The notes under the pieces: generated by a model
Databases searched by the model: none
Seen by the model: the letters and a program-made list of their open reading frames with translations, nothing else
What the model was told of the DNA's origin: nothing
Source: Rickettsiales bacterium
GTDB lineage: Bacteria > Pseudomonadota > Alphaproteobacteria > Rickettsiales > SXRF01
Length of the DNA: 64,000 bases
Assembly (NCBI GenBank): GCA_033762715.1
Contig: JANRLL010000001.1
Span: 96,315-160,314, forward strand
Direction: 5' to 3'
Made by a program: the position numbers and the translations under genes
Part shown: positions 4,345 to 38,215 of the stretch, in pieces
Numbering within the stretch: the first letter of the stretch is position 1
Layout of the letters: each line of letters opens with the position of its first letter

Positions 4345-5037
4345 CTATTTCTTCGCAGCTGGTTTCGCGTCTTCTTTTTTCGCATCGGCAGCAGGAGCAG
4401 CCGCAGCGCCAGCAGCAGGAGCAGCCGCAGCAGTAGCCGCCACAGCAGCTGGTTCTTCTTCTTTCGTACGACCAGCAATGGTTGCAACGGTGAAGTTACG
4501 TTTAATAACGGGTGTAACATCTTTTGGCAGCGCGATGCTTTCGATATGCACGCTGTCACCGATGTTCATCTCTTGCAGATTCACTTCGATATGTTGCGGA
4601 ATGGCTTCTGCTGGGCAGATAAATTCGATTTCGTGACGTACAACGTTGAGTACACCGCCACGTTTCAGACCCAGCGATTTATCTTGGCCAACGAATTTAA
4701 CGGGCACCATTACGCGGATTTGCGAGCCAGGCTCTACGCGGATGAAATCCACATGTTCAATCACATCGGTTACTGGATGGAATTGCAGATCTTTTGGCAG
4801 GGCTTTCACCACGTCTTTGCCACCCAATTTGATGTCGATCAAACGGCTGCGGAAACGGCCACGTTGATATTCTTGCGTCACATCGGTTTGTTTCAAAGCG
4901 ATCGAAACAGGCGTGCCGGTTTTGCTATATAAAATAGCAGGAATTTTGCCTTCACGGCGTAATGCACGAGCAGGGCCTTTTCCGTGGGTTTCACGTAGCT
5001 CTGCGCTTAGGGTAGCATTTTGTTTAGCGTTAGTCAT
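4345..5037 (-). CDS. rplY: 50S ribosomal protein L25 / general stress protein Ctc form, with an Ala/Lys-rich C-terminal tail
   Basis: 230 aa. N-terminus LSAELRETHGKGPARALRREGKIPAILY. Sits in the conserved neighbourhood prs-rplY-pth-ychF. Confidence 0.93.
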   Translation of the reverse strand: MTNAKQNATLSAELRETHGKGPARALRREGKIPAILYSKTGTPVSIALKQTDVTQEYQRGRFRSRLIDIKLGGKDVVKALPKDLQFHPVTDVIEHVDFIRVEPGSQIRVMVPVKFVGQDKSLGLKRGGVLNVVRHEIEFICPAEAIPQHIEVNLQEMNIGDSVHIESIALPKDVTPVIKRNFTVATIAGRTKEEEPAAVAATAAAAPAAGAAAAPAADAKKEDAKPAAKK

Positions 5038-5063
5038 AGTAATACTCCTTTTAAAATCACTTA

Positions 5064-8382: not shown

Positions 8383-10233
8383 ATGTCCGATAATTCACTG
8401 TCCCTGCAAACAGGACGCACCATTATTCAACGTTATGTGGAGACGATGCCGCATACCCCTGGGGTGTATCGGATGATCGATCACGCGGGCAACGTGCTCT
8501 ATGTTGGAAAAGCAAAAAGTTTGAAGAACAGAGCGTCGTCCTATTTGAATGTAGGAGCATTGAACGCACGCTTGCAACGAATGGTGTCTCAGACCGCATC
8601 GATGGAGATTATCACTACGCGTTCTGAAGCAGAGGCATTATTGCTGGAAGCCAACCTAGTTAAAAAATTTGCTCCGCGCTACAACATTCTTCTGAAAGAT
8701 GACAAATCATTTCCTTACATCTTTTTGTCAGGTGATCACGAATATCCTTGCATCACCAAACATCGCGGTCCTAAAACCAAAAAGGGAAAATATTATGGGC
8801 CATTCGTATCGGCTGGCGCGGTGAATGAAACCCTCGCTATCCTGCAGAAAGCCTTCTTGCTCAGGCCGTGTTCGGATAGCGTATTTAATAGCCGTACGCG
8901 TCCGTGCCTGCAGTATCAGATCAAGCGCTGCAGCGCGCCTTGCGTCAATAAAATTAGCAAAGAAGATTATGCTGAGTTGGTAGAGCAGGCGCAGGCGTTT
9001 CTGTCTGGAAAGAATCAAGAAATTCAGCAAGAGTTGATCGAAGAAATGCAGACCTACAGCTTGCAGATGAATTATGAAAAGGCGCGTATCATACGCGATC
9101 GTATTCGTGCGCTTACCACCGTTCAGCAGCAGCATGATTTGGATAATGAAGCGGTGGGGAATGTGGATATATTCGTGTTAGCGCGCGAAGGCATGCAATG
9201 TTGCATTCAGCTATTTTCGGTTCGCGCTGGACGCAATTATGGTAACCGTTCCTGGTTTCCCACTCATTCAGAGGATTATAGCGATAGCGAAATCCTAGAG
9301 ACGTTCATTGCGCAATTCTACCAAACGCAGCTGCCGCCACAAACCATCCTGGTCAATGCGGTGATACATGAAGTCAGCTTGCTTGAAGAAGCATTGCAAT
9401 TACAAGCACAGTATAAAGTAGAGATTGTTCAACCATTACGTGGTGAGAAGCGTAAATTATTAGATCAGGCGCTGGTGAATGCACGCCAGGCCCTTATTCG
9501 CCATATGACGATGAGCGCCACTCAGCAAGAGGTGCTAGCATCGCTACAGAGCTTGTTCGGCTTAGAAGACGCACCGCAGCGCATAGAAGTCTATGATAAC
9601 AGTCATATCAGTGGGGTCCATGCAACGGGTGCGATGATTGTTGCGGGACCGGATGGCTTCATAAAATCAGAGTATCGCAAATTTAACATCAAAGATGAAA
9701 GCACGGTGCCTGGCGATGATTACGCTATGATGCGTGAAGTATTGATGCGCCGCTTTAAGCGACTAGAAGGTGAAGCTGGGGCCGTACCAGATCTGGTGCT
9801 GATTGACGGTGGCGCAGGTCAGCTTTCGACAGCGATGGCGGTATTCGAAGAGTTAGGCGTACAAAATATTGCGTTGGTTGCTATTGCTAAAGGACCGGAT
9901 CGCAATGCGGGCAGGGAACAATTCTTCATGCCAGGCAAAGCACCGTTCCAATTACCAATGGATGATGCTGCACTCCATTATTTGCAGCGCTTACGCGATG
10001 AAGCGCATCGTTTCGCCATCGGCACCCATCGCAATAAGCGTAGTAAATCGATGCAAGTCTCCGAGTTGGATCAAATCCCAGGCATTGGCTCTGTTCGCAA
10101 GAAAGCGCTGCTAATGCATTTCGGTTCGGCCAAAGCCGTGGCAGCTGCCAGTGTGGAGGAGATTGCCAAGGTGGAAAATATAAACCGTGTGACGGCTGAA
10201 ATGATCTTTGCCCATTTTCACGGTGAGGCCTAA
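8383..10233 (+). CDS. uvrC: Excinuclease ABC subunit C
   Basis: 616 aa. GIY-YIG motif PGVYRMIDHAGNVLYVGKAKSLKNR and a C-terminal (HhH)2 region. Confidence 0.95.
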   Translation: MSDNSLSLQTGRTIIQRYVETMPHTPGVYRMIDHAGNVLYVGKAKSLKNRASSYLNVGALNARLQRMVSQTASMEIITTRSEAEALLLEANLVKKFAPRYNILLKDDKSFPYIFLSGDHEYPCITKHRGPKTKKGKYYGPFVSAGAVNETLAILQKAFLLRPCSDSVFNSRTRPCLQYQIKRCSAPCVNKISKEDYAELVEQAQAFLSGKNQEIQQELIEEMQTYSLQMNYEKARIIRDRIRALTTVQQQHDLDNEAVGNVDIFVLAREGMQCCIQLFSVRAGRNYGNRSWFPTHSEDYSDSEILETFIAQFYQTQLPPQTILVNAVIHEVSLLEEALQLQAQYKVEIVQPLRGEKRKLLDQALVNARQALIRHMTMSATQQEVLASLQSLFGLEDAPQRIEVYDNSHISGVHATGAMIVAGPDGFIKSEYRKFNIKDESTVPGDDYAMMREVLMRRFKRLEGEAGAVPDLVLIDGGAGQLSTAMAVFEELGVQNIALVAIAKGPDRNAGREQFFMPGKAPFQLPMDDAALHYLQRLRDEAHRFAIGTHRNKRSKSMQVSELDQIPGIGSVRKKALLMHFGSAKAVAAASVEEIAKVENINRVTAEMIFAHFHGEA

Positions 10234-10236
10234 CAT

Positions 10237-10266
10237 AAAAAAAGGGAGCCCAAAGGCTCCCTTTTT
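10237..10266. terminator. Bidirectional intrinsic terminator between convergent uvrC and the phasin gene
   Basis: A-run, stem GGGAGCC (10244-10250), loop CAAA, stem GGCTCCC (10255-10261), then T-run 10262-10266. Confidence 0.7.
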
Positions 10267-10284
10267 ATTCAATCAATCTAACAA

Positions 10285-10707
10285 TTATTGTTTGTTCGAT
10301 TTTTTAGCAGCAGGTGCTTGACCAGCAGCTTTGCTGATTTCAGCCAGGCTTTCAGCAGCGCGTTGATTCAAGATATCAAAGGCTTCGAAGCTTGATTTGG
10401 TAGCGGTTTCTACGATTTCACGGATGTTAGCCAGCGTGTTTTCGAAGATCGATTTAGCCAGATCGCTTTGTTTAGCAAGGCTAGCTTCTGGGGTGTTGCC
10501 CGACAGAATGTCTTTCGATGCTTTCAAAATGCTTTCTACGTTGTCACGAGCTACTTCAGCTTGACGGCGAGAGATAGCTTGCGCGCTTTCAACCACGGTT
10601 TGGTTAACAGCCGAAACGGTTTCGATGTTGCGGCGTTGGGTAGAAAACAATTGGTTCAGATCCAACGAGTTTTTGAAAAAGTCAGAAAATGCAAAATTGG
10701 TACTCAT
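10285..10707 (-). CDS. Phasin family (PHA granule-associated) protein
   Basis: MSTNFAFSDFFKNSLDLNQLFSTQRRNIETVSAVNQ... It is all-helical with a typical phasin N-terminus and an Ala/Lys tail. Start placed at ATG 10707, which is Met38 of the track ORF. Confidence 0.8.
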   Translation of the reverse strand: MSTNFAFSDFFKNSLDLNQLFSTQRRNIETVSAVNQTVVESAQAISRRQAEVARDNVESILKASKDILSGNTPEASLAKQSDLAKSIFENTLANIREIVETATKSSFEAFDILNQRAAESLAEISKAAGQAPAAKKSNKQ

Positions 10708-10794
10708 AAATATTCTCCTATATGTTGTCTTCTGTAGTCGATTAACAGAATCGGGCACATCATGGGATATTAGAGGTGAGAAGTCAAGATTTTT

Positions 10795-10809
10795 TTGTGC
10801 AACGCACAA
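10795..10809. promoter_or_regulatory. Palindrome TTGTGC-AAC-GCACAA upstream of the phasin gene (possible PhaR-type operator)
   Basis: Perfect 6+6 inverted repeat with a 3-nt spacer, about 90-100 nt upstream of the phasin ATG. Confidence 0.3.
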
Positions 10810-10833
10810 TATATTCAAGATATTGATTTATAT

Positions 10834-11643
10834 CTATTTTGATAGCTCTTTGCTACGTTCGGCTGCCTTTTTTACCGCTTCTTGAACCAGACTTTTGAGC
10901 CCATTTTTTTCCATTAAGACGCGAAGTCCGGCCTCAGTCGTTCCACCGGGGCTGGTAACTTGTTGGCGCAGCGCATCCAATGAATCTGTGCTCGCGCGCG
11001 CTAATTCTCCACTGCCGATGAGTGTTGCAATCGCGAGCTGTTTAGCCATGGCTTCGGGCAATCCATGTTCGATGCCTGCTTGTGTTAGCGCATCGAGAAA
11101 CAAAAATACATAGGCCGGTCCACTGCCCGAGACTGCGGTGACTGCATCCATCCATTGTTCGTTCTCTATCCAGCTCGTTTGCCCCACGGCGGCGAGTAAA
11201 TTCGTTGCAGTTTTTTTAGCGATGCTGGGAAGTGCTTTAGACGCGCATAGCACACTCATGCCTTTTCCAATCAATGCCGGTGTATTGGGCATCACGCGCA
11301 CGATGTGTGCATCACGACCTAAATGGGAGTGGAAAAAAGACAATGGCTTGCCGGCGGCAATGGAAATATAGAGAGGCTTACTGCCGAAACGTTTTTTAAA
11401 GGCAGGCAGCATGGTGGATAATTGTTGTGGCTTCACGGCAAAGACGATGACGTGCGGACGCAATGATGTTGGAACAAACTCCAGATCAGAGACCCATCGT
11501 GATTTCATACCACGCATGGTGGGGGCATTGGGTTCAATCACCCAAAAATCCTGTATGCCTATGGTTGCGGATTTTTTCCAACGCGTGAGCAGGGCGCTGC
11601 CCATACGGCCACATCCCACCAGTAACAGCGAGCGGTCAGTCAT
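10834..11643 (-). CDS. proC: Pyrroline-5-carboxylate reductase
   Basis: 269 aa. N-terminal GCGRMGSAL dinucleotide fold and C-terminal VTSPGGTTEAGL. Confidence 0.93.
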   Translation of the reverse strand: MTDRSLLLVGCGRMGSALLTRWKKSATIGIQDFWVIEPNAPTMRGMKSRWVSDLEFVPTSLRPHVIVFAVKPQQLSTMLPAFKKRFGSKPLYISIAAGKPLSFFHSHLGRDAHIVRVMPNTPALIGKGMSVLCASKALPSIAKKTATNLLAAVGQTSWIENEQWMDAVTAVSGSGPAYVFLFLDALTQAGIEHGLPEAMAKQLAIATLIGSGELARASTDSLDALRQQVTSPGGTTEAGLRVLMEKNGLKSLVQEAVKKAAERSKELSK

Positions 11644-18055: not shown

Positions 18056-18065
18056 ATATAAAAAT

Positions 18066-18462
18066 GCCAGATAGCCTATAAGCCGGGTTCTGTACTGCTT
18101 GCGCAGCGATGACCATTCATCTGGGATGCTAATTACTTAGCACCTCGTGCAATCTACCCGGATAGCATTGTGCAAAGCGACACCCTATCCCTATTTGATC
18201 TTGCTCCCGGCGGGGTTTTCCCTGCCAGTTCCGTTACCGGAACCGCGGTGCGCTCTTACCGCACCTTTTCACCCTTACCGCGCTGCTATAAATAGCGGCG
18301 AGGCGGTATATTCTCTGTGGCACTTTCCCTGAAGTTACCCTCGGCGGGCGTTACCCGCCACCGTGCTTTGTGGAGCCCGGACTTTCCTCAAGAGCATTCG
18401 ACGTTTGATGCTATTCGCAATCGCTCGCCCACATATCCCCTGCGGTCATCCAGCTATCTGGC
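18066..18462 (-). ncRNA. rnpB: RNase P RNA, bacterial type A
   Basis: The minus strand carries GAGGAAAGUCCGGGCUCC (complement of 18372-18389), GGUAAGGGUGAAAAGGUGCGGUAAGAGCGCACCG, AGAUGAAUG and ACAGAACCCGGCUUAU (complement of 18081-18094). P1 pairs the 5' GCCAGAUAGCU with the 3' AGGCUAUCUGGC. The ends are estimated from that pairing. Confidence 0.9.
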
Positions 18463-32408: not shown

Positions 32409-33404
32409 TCAGGAAGCATTGCTACCACGCTCTAATTCTACAAGCAATCGTTGTAAATCATCGGCGATGGGGCATTCAAAATGCATGGCTTTCAGGTGGA
32501 TAGGATGGATCAACCCTAGCGCCCTGGCGTGCAATGCCTGGCGATTAAATGCCAGAATAGTTTGTTTGATGGCATTGGGCAAATTACGATAGAGTTTGCC
32601 GGTCATTTTGGCTTTGGCTGAGCCGCCATAGACCGGATCGCCCACCAGCGGGTGTCCGAGATGGGTCAGATGCACACGAATCTGGTGTGTGCGGCCAGTT
32701 TCCAAGCGGCATTCCACCAATGAAAAAGCGCCGTCAAAATAAATCGCGAGGGTTTTAAAATGGGTAGTGGCTTCGCGCCCGCCTTGTTTTAGTACCGCCA
32801 TTTTTTGCCGGTTCTGCGGGGAGCGCCCGATGTTGGCGCTGATCGTGCCCTGCTTGGGCGGTGTACCCCACACCAGGGCATGATAGGTGCGCCTCAAGGT
32901 GCGCTCAGACAGTTGCGCCGATAAATGCGCATGCGCCTTATCATGTTTGGCCACCACCAGCAGTCCGCTCGTATCTTTATCGAGGCGATGGACAATGCCA
33001 GGCCGCGCCACACCGCCAATGCCTGAAAGCGATTCACCGCAATGGGCCAGCAGCGCATTAACCAAAGTCATATCGGGATGCCCTGGCGCCGGATGCACGG
33101 TAAGGCCAGGTGGTTTATTGATAACCAAAATATCGGCGTCTTCGTAGATAATATCGAGCGCAATATCCTGTGCGACCAGATGCGAATGTTCCACCGGCGG
33201 AATGGTCACCGAATAAGTTGTGCCTGCTTTTACTTTATGCGACACATCACCAATCGTGCGCTCGCCCATCGTTACCTGGCCCGATTCAATCAGCGCCTGC
33301 ATGCGGCTTCGCGAAAAATCGGGCAAGCGCGCCGATAAAAATTTATCGAGCCGTTGGCCCACATCAGTTTCGTGTGCGATAATATGGTGAGTTTCATCAG
33401 ACAT
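32409..33404 (-). CDS. rluD: 23S rRNA pseudouridine synthase, RluD family
   Basis: S4 domain (QRLDKFLSARL) and catalytic HRLDKDTSGLLVVAK. Start placed at MSDETHH (ATG 33404); the track ORF is 74 codons longer. Confidence 0.9.
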   Translation of the reverse strand: MSDETHHIIAHETDVGQRLDKFLSARLPDFSRSRMQALIESGQVTMGERTIGDVSHKVKAGTTYSVTIPPVEHSHLVAQDIALDIIYEDADILVINKPPGLTVHPAPGHPDMTLVNALLAHCGESLSGIGGVARPGIVHRLDKDTSGLLVVAKHDKAHAHLSAQLSERTLRRTYHALVWGTPPKQGTISANIGRSPQNRQKMAVLKQGGREATTHFKTLAIYFDGAFSLVECRLETGRTHQIRVHLTHLGHPLVGDPVYGGSAKAKMTGKLYRNLPNAIKQTILAFNRQALHARALGLIHPIHLKAMHFECPIADDLQRLLVELERGSNAS

Positions 33405-33492: not shown

Positions 33493-34614
33493 ATGCCCCG
33501 CATGGCAGAGGAAAATCCCAAACAGGACAAACCGCCTTTCTGGAAAAGAAAACTGTCCAAGAAAGCAGCCGGTGCTATAGCCGGTGCTGCAATAGTGGGT
33601 GCTGTTGCTGTCCCTCGCCAGATCAATTATAATTACCATCATGCGGATGGCGCTGATACCGGCAATGTGAGTATGCGCGGTGGGCGTGTGCTGGATGATA
33701 GCCCGCGCTTTTTCGAAAAATTATTTGAGAATAACAGTGTCGTGGTTGTCACCGATACCGACCATAGCGATGTGCGCTCTCTCAACTGGATGAATGCTGC
33801 GCTCACCGATATGCCTCGAGGCAGTGTTGATGCCGTGGCATTTGAATTTGCGTCGCCCACTGTCATTGAAAATACATTGGAGCACGGCGCGCACTATACC
33901 AGTATTTGGGATCGGCCGATTTCGCCCTACGTAAAGCAATTGGATGCTGCCGGAATTGAGGTAGTAGGACTTGATGAAGAGCATGGCGTTAAAAGAATAG
34001 TAGAAAAAGATATACAAGATCAGCTACATGAGCCTACCGCTTCGCATGACGCACCAACCACACAAACCGTTCAATCATCTCCCGTCAAAAGACGATTCGT
34101 ATTGCCTAACCATGCGCATCCAGGTGGGCCGTTTGAAGAATCGCTCAATAAGCTCTATCAGATGCGGGAAGCGCCTTCCTTTACTGTCTATGTGGGCGAC
34201 GATGCTTTGCAGGCAACGACGACGACCACTCCTCCTCCGTCAGACCATACAAGCCATGCCGAACATGTGAGTGTCAGCAAAGCGCATACGGTTACCTTTA
34301 CGCCGCAAAAGCGGCAACTGGTCGATAATGATCGACGCGAAGCAACAGACCGTTGGGTGGATGAAATTGCTGAGCGTCTTCGTAAAAATCCGAACGCGAA
34401 AATAGTGGTCTATGCGGGTGATGCGCATGCTAGTGGTTTGCTATCAGAAGCTCGCCAAGATTTGGATGAAAAGTTGGGCATCCGTTTGCGCGAAATGGGT
34501 ATCGAAAAACCAGGCGTGGTGTATGTACGCACCAAAGCGCATCCTACCGTTGGCCACAAAACGGAAATCTGGGAAGGCGAGCGCACGCCACCATCAAAAG
34601 GCCATCAGCACTAG
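33493..34614 (+). CDS. Hypothetical membrane-anchored protein (basic head, one TM helix, two globular regions joined by a Thr/Pro/His-rich linker)
   Basis: TM helix AAGAIAGAAIVGAVAV and linker ATTTTTPPPSDHTSHAEH. No family assigned with confidence. The start is uncertain: 33493, or 33502; the track start at 33427 seems too close to the divergent rluD. Confidence 0.6.
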   Translation: MPRMAEENPKQDKPPFWKRKLSKKAAGAIAGAAIVGAVAVPRQINYNYHHADGADTGNVSMRGGRVLDDSPRFFEKLFENNSVVVVTDTDHSDVRSLNWMNAALTDMPRGSVDAVAFEFASPTVIENTLEHGAHYTSIWDRPISPYVKQLDAAGIEVVGLDEEHGVKRIVEKDIQDQLHEPTASHDAPTTQTVQSSPVKRRFVLPNHAHPGGPFEESLNKLYQMREAPSFTVYVGDDALQATTTTTPPPSDHTSHAEHVSVSKAHTVTFTPQKRQLVDNDRREATDRWVDEIAERLRKNPNAKIVVYAGDAHASGLLSEARQDLDEKLGIRLREMGIEKPGVVYVRTKAHPTVGHKTEIWEGERTPPSKGHQH

Positions 34615-34648
34615 TTTTCAGCGCTGCCACAAACCTGTCACATACGGC

Positions 34649-34692
34649 GTCACAGAAGCTTCATTTGTCTATCGCACCCATCGGTTTATGAT
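34649..34692 (+). promoter_or_regulatory. Putative promoter with shared box, copy 1
   Basis: Box GTCACAGAAGCTTCATTTGTCT (34649-34670). Its TTGTCT acts as the -35, then a 16-nt spacer, then TATGAT (34687-34692). GAGAGGA and ATG 34714 follow. Confidence 0.5.
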
Positions 34693-34713
34693 GAAAGGTG
34701 AGAGGATAGGCAT

Positions 34714-35187
34714 ATGAGAAAAGCACAGGCATATGGGATAGTACAAGCGCCGCTGGTTGAGCCGGTGGTGGCGTTGAGACTGCATGACGTGGCAAAGAAA
34801 GTCAGTGATACGAATACCGACATTGAACAAGCTAATGCCCTTGCCAAAGCCAGCCATCTCGAAGAAGCCGTGCCGCTGGTGACGGATAATCCCGAAAGCC
34901 CAATGGCCAACCTTTCCGATATTATGGCTAAAACCGAAGCTGGCAGCCGTGATGCGGCGGCTCTCGAAGCGAAGGTGATGCAAAAAACAATGCTGGAGCC
35001 GTTGGAAGATGGATCGGTCCTTACCATGCTCTCTTCGGCCCTGGCAGCGGTCGGTGGCATTTTCAAGGAACATGGCGTGTGTAGTGGCGGCTCAGTGCAT
35101 GAGCGCGATTTATGCCAACCGCTGGTCACATCCGGCCTATGGGCAGCTCGTTTGCCGCAAACCCAAGGAATGCAGGTCGTGGCATGA
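34714..35187 (+). CDS. Hypothetical acidic protein
   Basis: 157-aa ORF with SD GAGAGGA 8 nt upstream of the ATG, preceded by the shared promoter box. The antisense ORFs over the same DNA are Ser/Cys/Thr/His-rich and look like junk. Confidence 0.5.
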   Translation: MRKAQAYGIVQAPLVEPVVALRLHDVAKKVSDTNTDIEQANALAKASHLEEAVPLVTDNPESPMANLSDIMAKTEAGSRDAAALEAKVMQKTMLEPLEDGSVLTMLSSALAAVGGIFKEHGVCSGGSVHERDLCQPLVTSGLWAARLPQTQGMQVVA

Positions 35188-35247
35188 AAATTAAAACATT
35201 GATTTATAATATTATTTTTTATCTTAACGCAAAAGCAATGGTTTTTT

Positions 35248-35292
35248 GTCACAAAAGCTTAATTTGTGTTTCAAACCCGTGCATGGGATACT
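35248..35292 (+). promoter_or_regulatory. Putative promoter with shared box, copy 2
   Basis: Box GTCACAAAAGCTTAATTTGTGT (35248-35269). TTGTGT acts as the -35, then a 17-nt spacer, then GATACT (35287-35292). Confidence 0.5.
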
Positions 35293-35330
35293 AACACTAG
35301 AGACAAAGATTTTTTTTGAATGAGGACGTT

Positions 35331-35852
35331 ATGGGCGACAATGTAAAAGATCCCGCTTTGAAGAACTTCAGCCGCACTGGCGAGTATGTGAAACATACGT
35401 TCAAAAGCGCGCTGAATGGCGCGATCAAAGGCGCGTTGATTGTAGGCGCATTGGCCTTGATCCCTCTGGCCCTGGGCCCTGGTTTGATTGGCGGTGCGGT
35501 AGGTACGTTGCTCTCCTTCGTGGGCTTGAATACGGCAGGTGCGGCAACCGCTGGGTTTTTCTCGGCTAAAGTGCTGGGCGCCGCGTTTGGTGCTGCGATG
35601 TTTGGTGCAAAAGTTGGTGCTGTCGTAGGCGGTGCTACTGGCCTGATGGGCGCAGAAGATGCGGTGGATGAGGCGGAAGCACGTGCGGTGGACCGTACGC
35701 AACGTGCGCAGATGCGCTCGGTAAATAGCGAAATGATGGGTATGCGTGTGGCGCAAATGCGTGCTGCGGCCTTGGGCGGCGGTATGGTGGCTCCTGGCCA
35801 TGGTATTGGCGGCATGGGAATGGGCCAACAAGAGGGCATGGGGCTCGCATAA
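35331..35852 (+). CDS. Glycine-zipper integral membrane protein with a Met/Gly/Gln-rich C-terminal tail (paralog 1)
   Basis: First ATG at 35331, with GAGGA upstream; the track starts at TTG 35316. Zipper region GALIVGALALIPLALGPGLIGGAVGTLLSFVGLNTAGAATAGFFSAKVLGAAFGAAMFGAKVGAVVGGATGLMGA. Tail ...SEMMGMRVAQMRAAALGGGMVAPGHGIGGMGMGQQEGMGLA. Confidence 0.65.
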   Translation: MGDNVKDPALKNFSRTGEYVKHTFKSALNGAIKGALIVGALALIPLALGPGLIGGAVGTLLSFVGLNTAGAATAGFFSAKVLGAAFGAAMFGAKVGAVVGGATGLMGAEDAVDEAEARAVDRTQRAQMRSVNSEMMGMRVAQMRAAALGGGMVAPGHGIGGMGMGQQEGMGLA

Positions 35853-35881
35853 CCCTAGGATTTTGGCGATTGTCATAAAAG

Positions 35882-35925
35882 CTTCACTTGTTTGATTGAC
35901 GTAATCTGCCATAATGTGAGCATGT
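35882..35925 (+). promoter_or_regulatory. Putative promoter with shared box, copy 3
   Basis: Box GTCATAAAAGCTTCACTTGTTT (35882-35903). TTGTTT acts as the -35, then a 16-nt spacer, then CATAAT (35920-35925). Confidence 0.5.
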
Positions 35926-35963: not shown

Positions 35964-36539
35964 ATGGCAAAACCAATAGATCATGATTTCGACAGCAAGG
36001 TCGCAACGGCCGGCATTGAAGTCGCAAAAGGCAGTTTGTTGGGTATTGTTGGCGCTGGTTTGTTGACGGCAGCCACTTTGGTATTTGGCGTTGGTATGTT
36101 GGGCGCTGTGGCTAGCTTTGTGGGATTGGGTTCTTTTACCGGTGCTGCAGCGGCTATGATGACCGGCCCTGGCGCATTGATTACGCTTGCTAGCGGTATT
36201 GCAGGCGCATTTGGATTTGGTGGTGCGGGCGCATTGATCGGTGGCACTTACGGCCTGGCGAAAGCAGGCGGTAAAATTAATAGAGAAAGCCAAGCCTATC
36301 AGGATCGCGTGCAAGGTCAGATGGCATCGGTACAGAACACCGCGATGATGGCAATGCAGCAAGGCTATGAAATGGGCATGCAGGATGGCCAACAAAAAAT
36401 CGTAGCGGATCTTCAGCAAATGCATGCGCAAATGTTGCAAAAAGAAATGCTCGGCGCATCGGCTGAAAAAGGTAAATTCGCTAAAGGTATTGAACAGCAA
36501 CGTGAAGCCCATGCTGCGGCAGGGCCACAACTGGCATAG
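35964..36539 (+). CDS. Glycine-zipper integral membrane protein with a Met/Gln-rich helical tail (paralog 2)
   Basis: 191 aa with AAGGTGAG upstream of the ATG. Zipper region GSLLGIVGAGLLTAATLVFGVGMLGAVASFVGLGSFTGAAAAMMTGPGALITLASGIAGAFGFGGAGALIGGTYGL. Tail ...NTAMMAMQQGYEMGMQDGQQKIVADLQQMHAQMLQKEML. Confidence 0.65.
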   Translation: MAKPIDHDFDSKVATAGIEVAKGSLLGIVGAGLLTAATLVFGVGMLGAVASFVGLGSFTGAAAAMMTGPGALITLASGIAGAFGFGGAGALIGGTYGLAKAGGKINRESQAYQDRVQGQMASVQNTAMMAMQQGYEMGMQDGQQKIVADLQQMHAQMLQKEMLGASAEKGKFAKGIEQQREAHAAAGPQLA

Positions 36540-36557: not shown

Positions 36558-37025
36558 ATGGCAAACATCGTCGGTAAAGTAACAGAAGCACTCTGCACAG
36601 GGGTCCACAAAACGGCGGGCCTGGTGGGCATTAATACGCGTTCTGGCGGTAGCCTGATTACCACCCCCGTCAATGGCGCGGTGATGGAAGATGCAATGTT
36701 TTATACCAAAAAGGCAATTGGCAGCGGCACCAAGAAGGTACTGGTTGCCGGTGCTGCCTTGGCGGCGGTTGCGGGTCTTGCTGTTTTGGCTAGCGGCTCG
36801 CGTAAAGCAAAAACTTATAAAGAACAAGATGTTGAAGTTGTGCCTCCTATGATGGCATTCAACAATGCCAGCGCTGAAATGGGCCCTGCTGATGGCCATG
36901 AAGCCGGCAAATGGCAACAAATGGTCATGGCGAGCCGTGGCATGGGTGGCCGTGCCGCAAACCCGCGTATGAGCGTCGTTCCTGACGAAGCGGTTGCCGA
37001 TCTTAACGCCCGCGGGCTGAGCTAA
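36558..37025 (+). CDS. Hypothetical single-pass membrane protein, probably co-transcribed with the preceding gene
   Basis: 155 aa, starting 18 nt after the upstream stop. TM helix VLVAGAALAAVAGLAVLA. Met-rich C-terminal half (VPPMMAF, GKWQQMVMASRGMGG). Confidence 0.55.
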   Translation: MANIVGKVTEALCTGVHKTAGLVGINTRSGGSLITTPVNGAVMEDAMFYTKKAIGSGTKKVLVAGAALAAVAGLAVLASGSRKAKTYKEQDVEVVPPMMAFNNASAEMGPADGHEAGKWQQMVMASRGMGGRAANPRMSVVPDEAVADLNARGLS

Positions 37026-37057
37026 ATTTTTTAGCCTATTTTTTGCTCGAAACTTCA

Positions 37058-37846: not shown

Positions 37847-37918
37847 CCCGCTTTGAAGCGGTTTCAGACCGCTTTGTCCCCGCTTTAACCCCGCTTTTGA
37901 CCGCTCTGCACCCGCTTT
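37847..37918 (+). repeat. Array of seven CCGCTTT-type heptamers spaced 10-11 bp apart
   Basis: Copies start at 37848 (CCGCTTT), 37858 (GCGGTTT), 37869 (CCGCTTT), 37880 (CCGCTTT), 37891 (CCGCTTT), 37901 (CCGCTCT) and 37912 (CCGCTTT). Confidence 0.7.
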
Positions 37919-38142
37919 GTTCCGGTCATATTTCTTCTCTTTCAGGCGTTTACGCCGTTTTTGCCGGATTTTTCAGGAAAAAGGTGACAAAAAATGACCC
38001 AATCCATGCGGACACCCAGCTAAAAACCCACCCAATCCCATCCTCCTTCCGTCTGGTTTTTGGGATAAGCCGCTTATAAATGCTCGCCTAAAAATGGCTG
38101 TCACGGAAGGGGTTAAGGCGCATTCTTATCCCAAAACATTGC

Positions 38143-38171
38143 TTGACTTGCCCATAAAATACCAATAATCT
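38143..38171 (+). promoter_or_regulatory. Putative dcw/mraZ promoter (Pmra-like)
   Basis: TTGACT (38143-38148), a 17-nt spacer, then TAATCT (38166-38171), 45 nt upstream of the mraZ ATG. Confidence 0.5.
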
Positions 38172-38195
38172 CCCATCTAAACCCATAACTACCCA
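38172..38195 (+). promoter_or_regulatory. Three CCCA (TGGG on the other strand) repeats at exactly 10-bp spacing; candidate MraZ operator
   Basis: CCCA at 38172, 38182 and 38192 (CCCATCTAAA CCCATAACTA CCCAAGC), between the putative -10 and the mraZ start. Confidence 0.45.
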
Positions 38196-38215
38196 AGCAA
38201 ACAGGTATCGAGCGG

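Follow-up and report, generated by a model that had tools for sequence, protein, structure and literature searches.

The Promoter Array between rluD and rpsD

The window analysed here is a stretch of 64,000 nucleotides from a Rickettsiales bacterium (contig JANRLL010000001.1), and positions are counted from its first letter. Upstream of the mraZ-rsmH-dcw cluster it carries an array of four small genes, with rluD, encoded on the minus strand, on one side and rpsD on the other. Each of the first three is preceded by a copy of the same 21-bp box, the 3' TTG of which can serve as the beginning of a -35 hexamer. The array comprises the following features.

34637..34642 (+): extra GTCACA half-site, 12 bp 5' of the GTCAC of box 1
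34648..34668 (+): box copy 1, CGTCACAGAAGCTTCATTTGT, a pair of direct-repeat units of 11 bp and the TTG
34665..34670 (+): promoter 1, -35 TTGTCT, overlapping the 3' end of the box
34687..34692 (+): promoter 1, -10 TATGAT, spacer 16, predicted transcription start around 34699
34714..35187 (+): gene 1, 157 amino acids, Ala-rich with one hydrophobic segment (residues 99-119), without family match
35247..35267 (+): box copy 2, TGTCACAAAAGCTTAATTTGT
35264..35269 (+): promoter 2, -35 TTGTGT
35284..35292 (+): promoter 2, extended -10 TGgGATACT (GATACT at 35287-92), spacer 17, predicted start around 35299
35331..35852 (+): gene 2, 173 amino acids, an approximately 80-residue Gly/Ala-rich hydrophobic domain and a Met/Gln/Ala-rich tail, clade-restricted family
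35871..35891 (+): box copy 3, TGTCATAAAAGCTTCACTTGT
35888..35893 (+): promoter 3, -35 TTGTTT
35907..35915 (+): promoter 3, extended -10 TGcCATAAT, spacer 16, predicted start around 35922
35964..36539 (+): gene 3, 191 amino acids, paralog of gene 2, predicted helical hydrophobic hairpin and long C-terminal helix
36558..37025 (+): gene 4, 155 amino acids, one Ala/Gly-rich hydrophobic segment, without a box of its own
37014..37037 (+): terminator-like hairpin with T-run, closing the array ahead of the rpsD promoter

Each of the three -10 elements is followed by a Shine-Dalgarno sequence and an ATG. Promoter 1 (TTGTCT-16-TATGAT) scores 9 of 12 matches; the TGn extension of the -10 is present in copies 2 and 3, and the TGnCATAAT/CATAGT form seen in promoter 3 is kept in orthologous promoters. 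Since gene 4 lacks a box and follows gene 3 after 18 nucleotides, it is probably co-transcribed from promoter 3.

The box had been noticed in a first-pass annotation as three related 22-mers. These were verified letter for letter, with 17 of the 22 positions invariant across the copies. The coordinates given there held for copy 1 (34649-34670), copy 2 (35248-35269) and the start codon at 35964. Copy 3 had been placed at 35882-35903 and its -10 CATAAT at 35920-35925; their true positions are 35872-35893 (a slip of 10 bp, the real copy lying leftward) and 35910-35915. A degenerate search allowing up to three mismatches found three boxes in the window compared with 0.02 expected from dinucleotide shuffles, and turned up no additional copy elsewhere in the 64 kb, as the annotation had said. 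When the three upstream regions were aligned, only the box and one extra 5' base (Y) were conserved, while the flanks could not be aligned. The 21-bp box is a genuine element of promoters. In an Rfam scan of the window the box, which lies upstream of the predicted transcription start, matched no family, and a literature search for the box sequence strings returned nothing relevant.

Occurrence of the Box in Related Genomes

The exact pattern GTCAYARAAGCTTNAYTTGT was scanned against 185,579 species genomes, a collection without the window's own genome. This yielded 41 matching loci, compared with about 35 by our own chance estimate, and more than half of them were found in uncultured 'Rickettsiales' or 'Alphaproteobacteria' metagenome-assembled genomes (MAGs). 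A scan of metagenomes gave at least 120 matching loci. Both collection scans called for exact matches to patterns with a fixed CTT in the second repeat, so that promoters in which this repeat is canonical are under-represented among the targets. In all, the box YGTCAYAAAAGCTTMAYTTG was found in about 25 related alphaproteobacterial/"Rickettsiales" MAGs, here called the clade, and in more than 100 metagenome contigs. Two positions which the pattern did not fix are conserved in the clade: at position 13, left free in the search, each of the 26 clade copies has A or C, with G or T in the matches outside the clade, and the base 5' of the pattern (position -1) was T or C in all 26. A relaxed scan of the same 8-kb loci (denoted by L numbers below) recovered 19 further degenerate copies against about 0.4 expected. 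Most loci hold two to three boxes, and in related genomes the density is about one box per 40 kb.

A good TAnnnT -10 element lies 16-18 bp past the TTG at 40 of 44 sites, compared with 1-10 of 44 at control offsets, and an open reading frame (ORF) begins 20-160 nucleotides downstream. At least 184 boxes were collected from the genome and metagenome sets together, and a good -10 follows 117 of these. These comparative data strongly support the earlier proposal that the box is part of three separate promoters with its 3' TTG as -35, and also that the 16 bp upstream of the -35 behave as a dedicated regulator site which marks a regulon. An alternative sigma factor, put forward at the same time, does not fit: what is conserved downstream, at 16-18 bp, is a TAnAAT of the usual sigma-70 type, and no partner element of an extracytoplasmic function (ECF) sigma factor or of sigma-54 is conserved. 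ECF sigma factors, which use a conserved -35 and a CGT-type -10 after 16-17 bp, were rejected on an information content near zero 16-17 bp after GTCAYA or AAGCTT, and sigma-54 (GG-N10-GC) on the presence of GT and TC/TA where GG and GC are required, together with the sigma-70 -10.

At five loci (L016, L019, L045, L069, and L158) GC-rich hairpin terminators with T-runs end a few bases 5' of the box (for instance GGCGGC...GCCGCCTTTTTTAT-TGTCAC). Because these terminators stop just short of the boxes, the box-driven genes appear as insulated transcription units.

Conservation of the Array and Its Proteins

The layout of the array, with a variable gene followed by a member of the gene-2 family and a member of the gene-3 family, each with its own box, recurs in five loci (L003, L004, L015, L026, and L041), and in at least four of these it is flanked by rluD and rpsD. 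The slot of gene 1 is the one occupied by the variable gene. Orthologs of gene 2 were found in eight loci (the same five and L006, L175, and L176), and the box lies upstream of all of them. Relative to the window, RpsD is 80-82% and RluD 55-64% identical, compared with 28-43% for the regulated proteins of the gene-2 family, and the orthologous promoters align with those of the window at the box and the -10 only. Conservation of the box across genomes with about 80% RpsD identity calls for purifying selection.

An independent check started from the proteins. Contigs were fetched for two homologs of gene 2 which had been found by protein similarity alone (L175 and L176), and the box was present at the proper distance from the -10 in four of four promoters. 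L175, which shows the same rluD…rpsD-mraZ-rsmH synteny, had escaped the DNA pattern, and the contig of L176 is short. The first-pass annotation had named as a refutation a box that is frequent genome-wide with no relation to gene starts. This is not what was found in the related genomes, because the promoter footprint is conserved and all four promoters reached from the protein side carry the box.

The same comparison bears on the idea that the boxes resemble each other merely as a by-product of gene duplication that carried the promoter along, without shared regulation. Genes 2 and 3 are indeed paralogs, and they belong to a large family with 37 box-driven members. Against this, the flanks have wholly diverged and 21 bp have stayed nearly invariant, a footprint which effectively refutes the idea, and the box also precedes unrelated genes, namely gene 1, large multi-domain proteins, a deaminase and, in other orders, an arsR-gapdh-arsJ operon. 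Duplication alone is thus hardly credible as an explanation.

The gene-2 and gene-3 families form one cluster, that of the 37 box-driven proteins. The two genes of the window are 32% identical, and in both products the Gly/Ala-rich hydrophobic domain, some 80 residues long, precedes a helical tail rich in Gln and Met. Five local proteins compared with Pfam and NCBIfam gave no significant match. A word-indexed search of gene 3 against 5.8 billion proteins matched only the protein itself, and a full HMMER scan of 1.84 billion cluster representatives yielded about 90 relatives of gene 2, all of 150-210 amino acids and at most 44% identical. On these protein searches the array genes are fast-evolving and lineage-restricted rather than strict orphans. 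Their earlier description as otherwise unconnected ORFans has to be revised, as genes 2 and 3 are paralogous, gene 2 has its relatives, and the array as a whole recurs in synteny, with rluD and rpsD at its sides, in at least six genomes. For gene 3, an AlphaFold model from the single sequence reached a pLDDT (predicted local distance difference test) of 66, too weak for a fold search. Across the loci, 73% of the box-driven proteins contain a hydrophobic segment.

A further element accompanies the gene-2 family. A conserved TGTGACA, that is, an inverted GTCACA half-site, lies about 30-45 bp upstream of the box (L175 2887-2952, L176 280-345, and also L004, L006, and L041), and in L175 there is a whole box in divergent orientation. 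This element may represent a second operator, or else a divergent promoter.

Anatomy of the Box

Copies that match neither search pattern exactly have the consensus Y-G-T-C-A-Y-A-A-A-A-[G/C]-C-[T/G]-T-[A/C]-A-Y-T-T-G. The box is thus built as a direct repeat of Y-K-T-M-A-Y with an exact period of 11 bp followed by TTG, and it contains a tandem repeat of 17 bp, YGTCAYAAAAG | CTTMAY. Of 106 sites, 14 have a third K-T-M-A-Y half-site at -11, and GTCAY is seen also at -11/-12 and -21/-22. The palindrome AAGCTT, which had been noted in the core, is incidental, because its G varies freely in copies unselected by the patterns (12 have G, 11 have C, and 2 have A). The inverted repeat ACAAA-N7-TTTGT was likewise rejected as functional core, its outer arms being unconserved as a palindrome. 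The 17-bp repeat and the TTG of the -35 are separable, because an ars promoter of Roseicitreum retains CGTCACAAAAGCTTCAC and lacks the TTG.

At a 17-bp spacer the repeat occupies about -52 to -36. A site in this region that ends at -36 is in the classic activating position for proteins of the OmpR family such as OmpR and PhoB. The box also has the generic properties of OmpR/PhoB-family sites: a direct repeat, a period of 10-11 bp, and further phased half-sites. It falls into the class of -35-adjacent (class II) activator-dependent sigma-70 promoters, which share a weak TTG-only -35, a good or extended -10 and an abutting activator site. The box is very probably a tandem response-regulator site fused to a sigma-70 -35, and as such the mark of a lineage-wide regulon of unannotated Gly/Ala-rich membrane proteins. 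The type of element is known; its variant second repeat, the geometry that retains the -35, and the content of the regulon are new.

A similar situation has been described for the PmrA regulon of Legionella pneumophila and Coxiella burnetii, where a tandem repeat for an OmpR-family protein is placed just 5' of the -10 of unrelated, lineage-specific Dot/Icm effector genes, and where, as with the box, the regulon is recognisable from the shared promoter box alone. The PmrA system differs in its repeat, which is of the cTTAATatT type, and in its regulator, and secreted effectors are a feature of PmrA.

Two other readings of the same architecture were considered. According to the first there is no dedicated regulator, and the box is a strong constitutive module shared by highly expressed membrane-protein genes, in which an A-tract resembling an UP element and the -35 are read by the C-terminal domain of the alpha subunit (alpha-CTD) together with sigma-70, or else by a paralog of sigma-70 that uses an extended -35. 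The proximal UP subsite is located around -46 to -43, which is where the AAAA of the box lies at a 17-bp spacer; the distance from the TTG to a standard -10 is canonical, and no regulator gene is consistently adjacent. The window itself agrees with the last point, as the ORFs of 223, 230, and 226 amino acids found there when a regulator gene was sought are Pth, L25, and PurQ. The best-conserved bases, however, are GTCA and CTT-A and not the A-tract, a specificity which alpha-CTD does not have. GTCAY half-sites phased at 11 and 22 bp and the divergent copy argue for a sequence-specific oligomerising protein, the Roseicitreum promoter shows that the repeat is selected independently of the -35, and nothing is conserved at the positions of an ECF -10 or a sigma-54 GC element. 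A constitutive module is therefore improbable. The second reading takes the box as a repressor operator over the -35, so that the genes would be silenced jointly until a signal arrives. A site overlapping the -35 could occlude polymerase, but the -35 itself is weak (TTGTnn, with the TTG alone conserved), as is typical of activator-dependent promoters, a direct repeat ending at -36 is in the activating position for OmpR-family proteins, as in CenR sites, and the ars promoters of Rhodobacterales already have a separate palindrome over the -10, presumably for repression. Repression through the box is accordingly a very remote prospect.

On the preferred reading, an activator site, a response regulator of the OmpR/PhoB family would bind the tandem repeat as a head-to-tail dimer, and at some promoters a third protomer may occupy the extra upstream half-site. 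Placed at about -52 to -36 the regulator would recruit sigma-70 RNA polymerase to a TTGTnn -35 presumed too weak to work without it. The most likely regulator would be PhoB, in which case the three transcription units would be induced jointly on phosphate limitation and would belong to a lineage-wide regulon made up mostly of unannotated Gly/Ala-rich membrane proteins. Activation rather than repression, the identity of the binding protein and phosphate as the signal are what we infer here from the architecture and the comparisons given below. This explanation as a whole, from the composite element to the phosphate-limitation regulon, is on balance somewhat probable.

PhoB or Another Member of the OmpR Family

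The alphaproteobacterial Pho box is among the closest known relatives of the element. ChIP-seq (chromatin immunoprecipitation followed by sequencing) of Sinorhizobium PhoB gave YGTCAYR, an A-rich N4 spacer and a second YGTCAYR (bioRxiv 10.1101/741363), and reviews list the Pho box as CTGTCAT-N4-CTGTCAT. The first repeat of the box together with its A-rich spacer (YGTCAYA-AAAG) is identical to the alphaproteobacterial consensus, and both elements consist of two 11-bp direct-repeat units, have phased extra half-sites and overlap the -35 region of a sigma-70 promoter. They differ in the second unit, which is CTTMAY in the box instead of YGTCAY: CTTMAYT matches YGTCAYR at 5 of 7 positions, and among 25 unselected copies the canonical G is found in 6 and T in 19. 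L041 contains a fully canonical TGTCACGAGACTGTCAC followed by TTGC-N17-TAGAAT which drives a protein with a twin-arginine translocation (Tat) signal (its ORF is cut at the end of the locus), L078 has a canonical Pho box 42 bp upstream of a box, and the genuine four-unit Pho-box array of pstS in Cereibacter azotoformans includes a CTTCAT unit. The Pho box of E. coli phoE, CTGTAATATATCTTTAAC, contains TGTAAT/CTTTAAC variants of the same kind. This box and the E. coli PhoB, PhoU, and PstS sequences served for illustration or as probes only.

The clade has a PhoB of its own. It scores 334-344 bits against the TIGR02154 equivalog cut-off of 296, and its recognition helix RTVDVH(I/V)RRLR is that of E. 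coli PhoB. MAG JANRKF01 holds both PhoB and box loci, which places PhoB in relatives of the window genome. L167 has a perfect box after phoB-gpx, and in L017 the distance from phoB to a box-driven gene is 1.6 kb; in neither locus is phoB more than 1.6 kb away from a box-driven gene. Arsenic islands of Alphaproteobacteria are documented to be under the control of PhoB (PMC7533571).

Several findings weigh against PhoB. Pho boxes stand before genes for phosphate acquisition (pst, phoA/X/D, phn, ugp) and as a rule before phoB too. Not one pst, pho, phn, or ugp gene is present among more than 150 box-driven genes, an absence which is partly explained by the search patterns, since these excluded boxes with a canonical second repeat. 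Outside the gene-2/gene-3 cluster only about 18 of 111 box-driven proteins have any Pfam domain. The geometry differs as well: in classical Pho promoters (pstS1 and phnD of A. tumefaciens, pstS of Cereibacter) the last repeat stops 10 bp short of the -10 and takes the place of the -35, with no TTG, whereas the box ends 22-23 bp before the -10 and retains the TTG -35. This places the box 12-13 bp, or roughly a helical turn, farther away from the -10 than the repeats of the pstS and phnD promoters examined. Neither the box nor a Pho box was found upstream of the clade phoB-(gpx)-phoX genes, and the box is absent from the A. tumefaciens arsenic island for which control by PhoB has been shown experimentally. 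Enrichment of boxes near phoB is only weak, at 2-3 of 7 genomes and a density of about one box in 38 kb. Finally, the clade also encodes an OmpR/EnvZ-like pair, and CenR sites share with the box the co-directional position next to the -35 and an envelope-protein regulon. Taken together, PhoB as regulator with phosphate limitation as signal is a reading of moderate confidence.

The last two points lead to another regulator acting through the same architecture, a clade OmpR/EnvZ-like or a CenR-like protein which would respond to envelope or osmotic stress. CenR (TGA-N8-TGA) uses an OmpR-family direct repeat of 11 bp, adjacent to the -35 and co-directional with transcription, and controls an envelope regulon with many uncharacterised proteins. 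In the published ChIP-seq data of R. sphaeroides CenR (PMC9275681) 28 of 31 sites lie directly 5' of the -35 in the direction of transcription, and the sites fit T[G/C]AC-N7-T[G/C]A; the site at RSP_1807, TCGCAAAACCTTGAT, matches a common box variant, TCACAAAACCTTCAT, at 13 of 15 positions, and 29 of 31 targets are envelope or periplasmic proteins, which resembles the membrane-protein content of the box regulon. The OmpR/EnvZ-like pair is encoded in MAG JANRKF01, which carries box loci. Other observations disagree with this assignment. CenKR is reported to be absent from Rickettsiales, Holosporales, and Pelagibacterales. The preferred CenR half-site is TGA and that of the box TCA or TAA, never TGA; in the second half-site, where CenR prefers TGA (about 20 of 31), the clade box has C or A at the base which the search had left free, and G in 0 of 26 copies. 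CenR spacers are mostly GC-rich compared with the invariant AAAA of the box, the recognition helix of the clade OmpR-like protein (for which L172 13475-14161 is an example) differs (RSVDVQMSRLRK), and the association with arsenate operons has no obvious envelope-stress logic. Such a regulator in place of PhoB is unlikely, if the strongest of the rivals. Two other regulators were rejected by their motifs: ChvI, which binds GCC repeats 11 nucleotides apart (GCC-N8-GCC), as there is no GCC in the box, and CtrA, whose motif TTAA-N7-TTAAC is absent from the box consensus.

Beside the question of the box, the phoB region of the clade has features of its own. In L167, L168, and L170-L173 (around 9300-11500) ispA and phoB keep a conserved divergent arrangement, often followed by gpx and phoX; this phoB is located outside any pst operon, and no Pho box can be recognised upstream of it. 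In L017, TGTCAGC repeats that lie between phoB and phoX were considered as Pho half-sites and rejected, since they form one arm of a long inverted repeat. This imperfect repeat of AGCTGTC/AGCTTTC 7-mers (L017 4090-4170), the arms of which mimic TGTCA half-sites, probably folds into a hairpin, as a terminator or attenuator. In three Colwellia MAGs (L008, L020, and L024; for instance L008 2795-2870) the identical 20-mer of the box makes up the promoter-proximal half of a four-unit array, GTCAT/GACAT/GTCAC/TTCAT, which is phased at 11 bp and lies 10 bp from TATACT, the classical geometry of a Pho promoter. As it precedes a DUF3083 gene of unknown function, it is uninformative on the regulator.

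Arsenic Resistance Operons

In two cultured bacteria, Cereibacter sphaeroides 2.4.1 and Roseicitreum antarcticum, the box precedes an annotated arsR-gapdh-arsJ operon for arsenate resistance.

L164 (C. sphaeroides 2.4.1 plasmid pDE) 5003-5060: ars-operon box, with the promoter at about 133,850-133,960 of record NZ_CP030276.1
L165 (Roseicitreum antarcticum pRA01) 5001-5050: ars-operon box

Downstream of the box these ars promoters have a perfect palindrome over the -10 (TTCCATAA...TTATGGAA), which is presumably the ArsR operator. The same order, with the box upstream of an ArsR-type palindrome, is found in many high-GC metagenome contigs before arsR-gapdh-arsJ, arsR-arsC-acr3, or aioBA/arsR. 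Arsenate is an analogue of phosphate. A literature search for a paper linking arsJ to PhoB found none.

A variant, TGTCACAAAACCTTCACTTG[C/G], was seen in high-GC alphaproteobacterial contigs (L060 8801-8962, L059 1125-1208, and L099 4186-4250). Its contexts are a divergent aioBA/arsR region and positions before arsR-arsC-acr3 and before gapdh-arsJ. The related arsenic islands of Nitrobacter hamburgensis and A. tumefaciens were examined and the variant box is absent from them.

A wider picture would take in both the clade data and the arsenic operons. In it, a deep and uncultured Rickettsiales-like lineage would have rewired PhoB to a new architecture that drives a large, lineage-specific and fast-evolving regulon of dozens of promoters per genome, the same architecture linking PhoB to arsR-gapdh-arsJ in Rhodobacterales. 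The architecture proposed would be a Pho half-box plus variant repeat, shifted one helical turn further upstream and fused to a true -35. The glycine-zipper membrane proteins with coiled-coil or low-complexity domains could then be surface or host-interaction factors under the low-phosphate signal of an intracellular niche. This picture is tentative and rather doubtful.

Use of the Box as a Handle on a Probable Regulon

With the 21-bp pattern a whole regulon becomes accessible from sequence in bacteria which nobody has yet grown in culture. In each genome the pattern points to dozens of genes that could not be annotated otherwise, and it predicts co-expression of the genes under the box. Should PhoB be the regulator, these proteins would gain, in phosphate limitation, a first physiological cue that can be tested, and the box would represent a second class of PhoB promoters in which the -35 is retained. 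If an OmpR- or CenR-like protein acts instead, the genes would form an envelope-stress stimulon in a lineage thought to be without CenKR. A bench test is feasible because the same element precedes arsR-gapdh-arsJ in the tractable C. sphaeroides 2.4.1, and if the palindrome is the ArsR operator this ars promoter would have a dual input and be open to genetics.

Other Features of the Window

Directly 5' of the array a protein of 372 amino acids is encoded (33496-34614, plus strand), which has an N-terminal Ala/Gly-rich membrane anchor and no family match. Its gene has its own sigma-70-like promoter, TTGGCC-18-GATAAT at 33354-33383, without the box.

On the other side of the array, 3-6 direct copies of CCGCTTT(G/A/T) with a spacing of 10-12 bp lie at 37847-37923, between the rpsD terminator and the mraZ promoter. 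Just 5' of mraZ (38216), at 38151-38197, there are CCCAT/CCCAA units about 10-11 bp apart (GCCCATAAAATACCAATAATCTCCCATCTAAACCCATAACTACCCAAGC), which on the opposite strand read as TGGGN repeats and resemble the MraZ operator.

The only Rfam family that reached its gathering score in the window is the class A bacterial RNase P RNA, which is present in full length at 18063-18461 on the minus strand with 317.6 bits.

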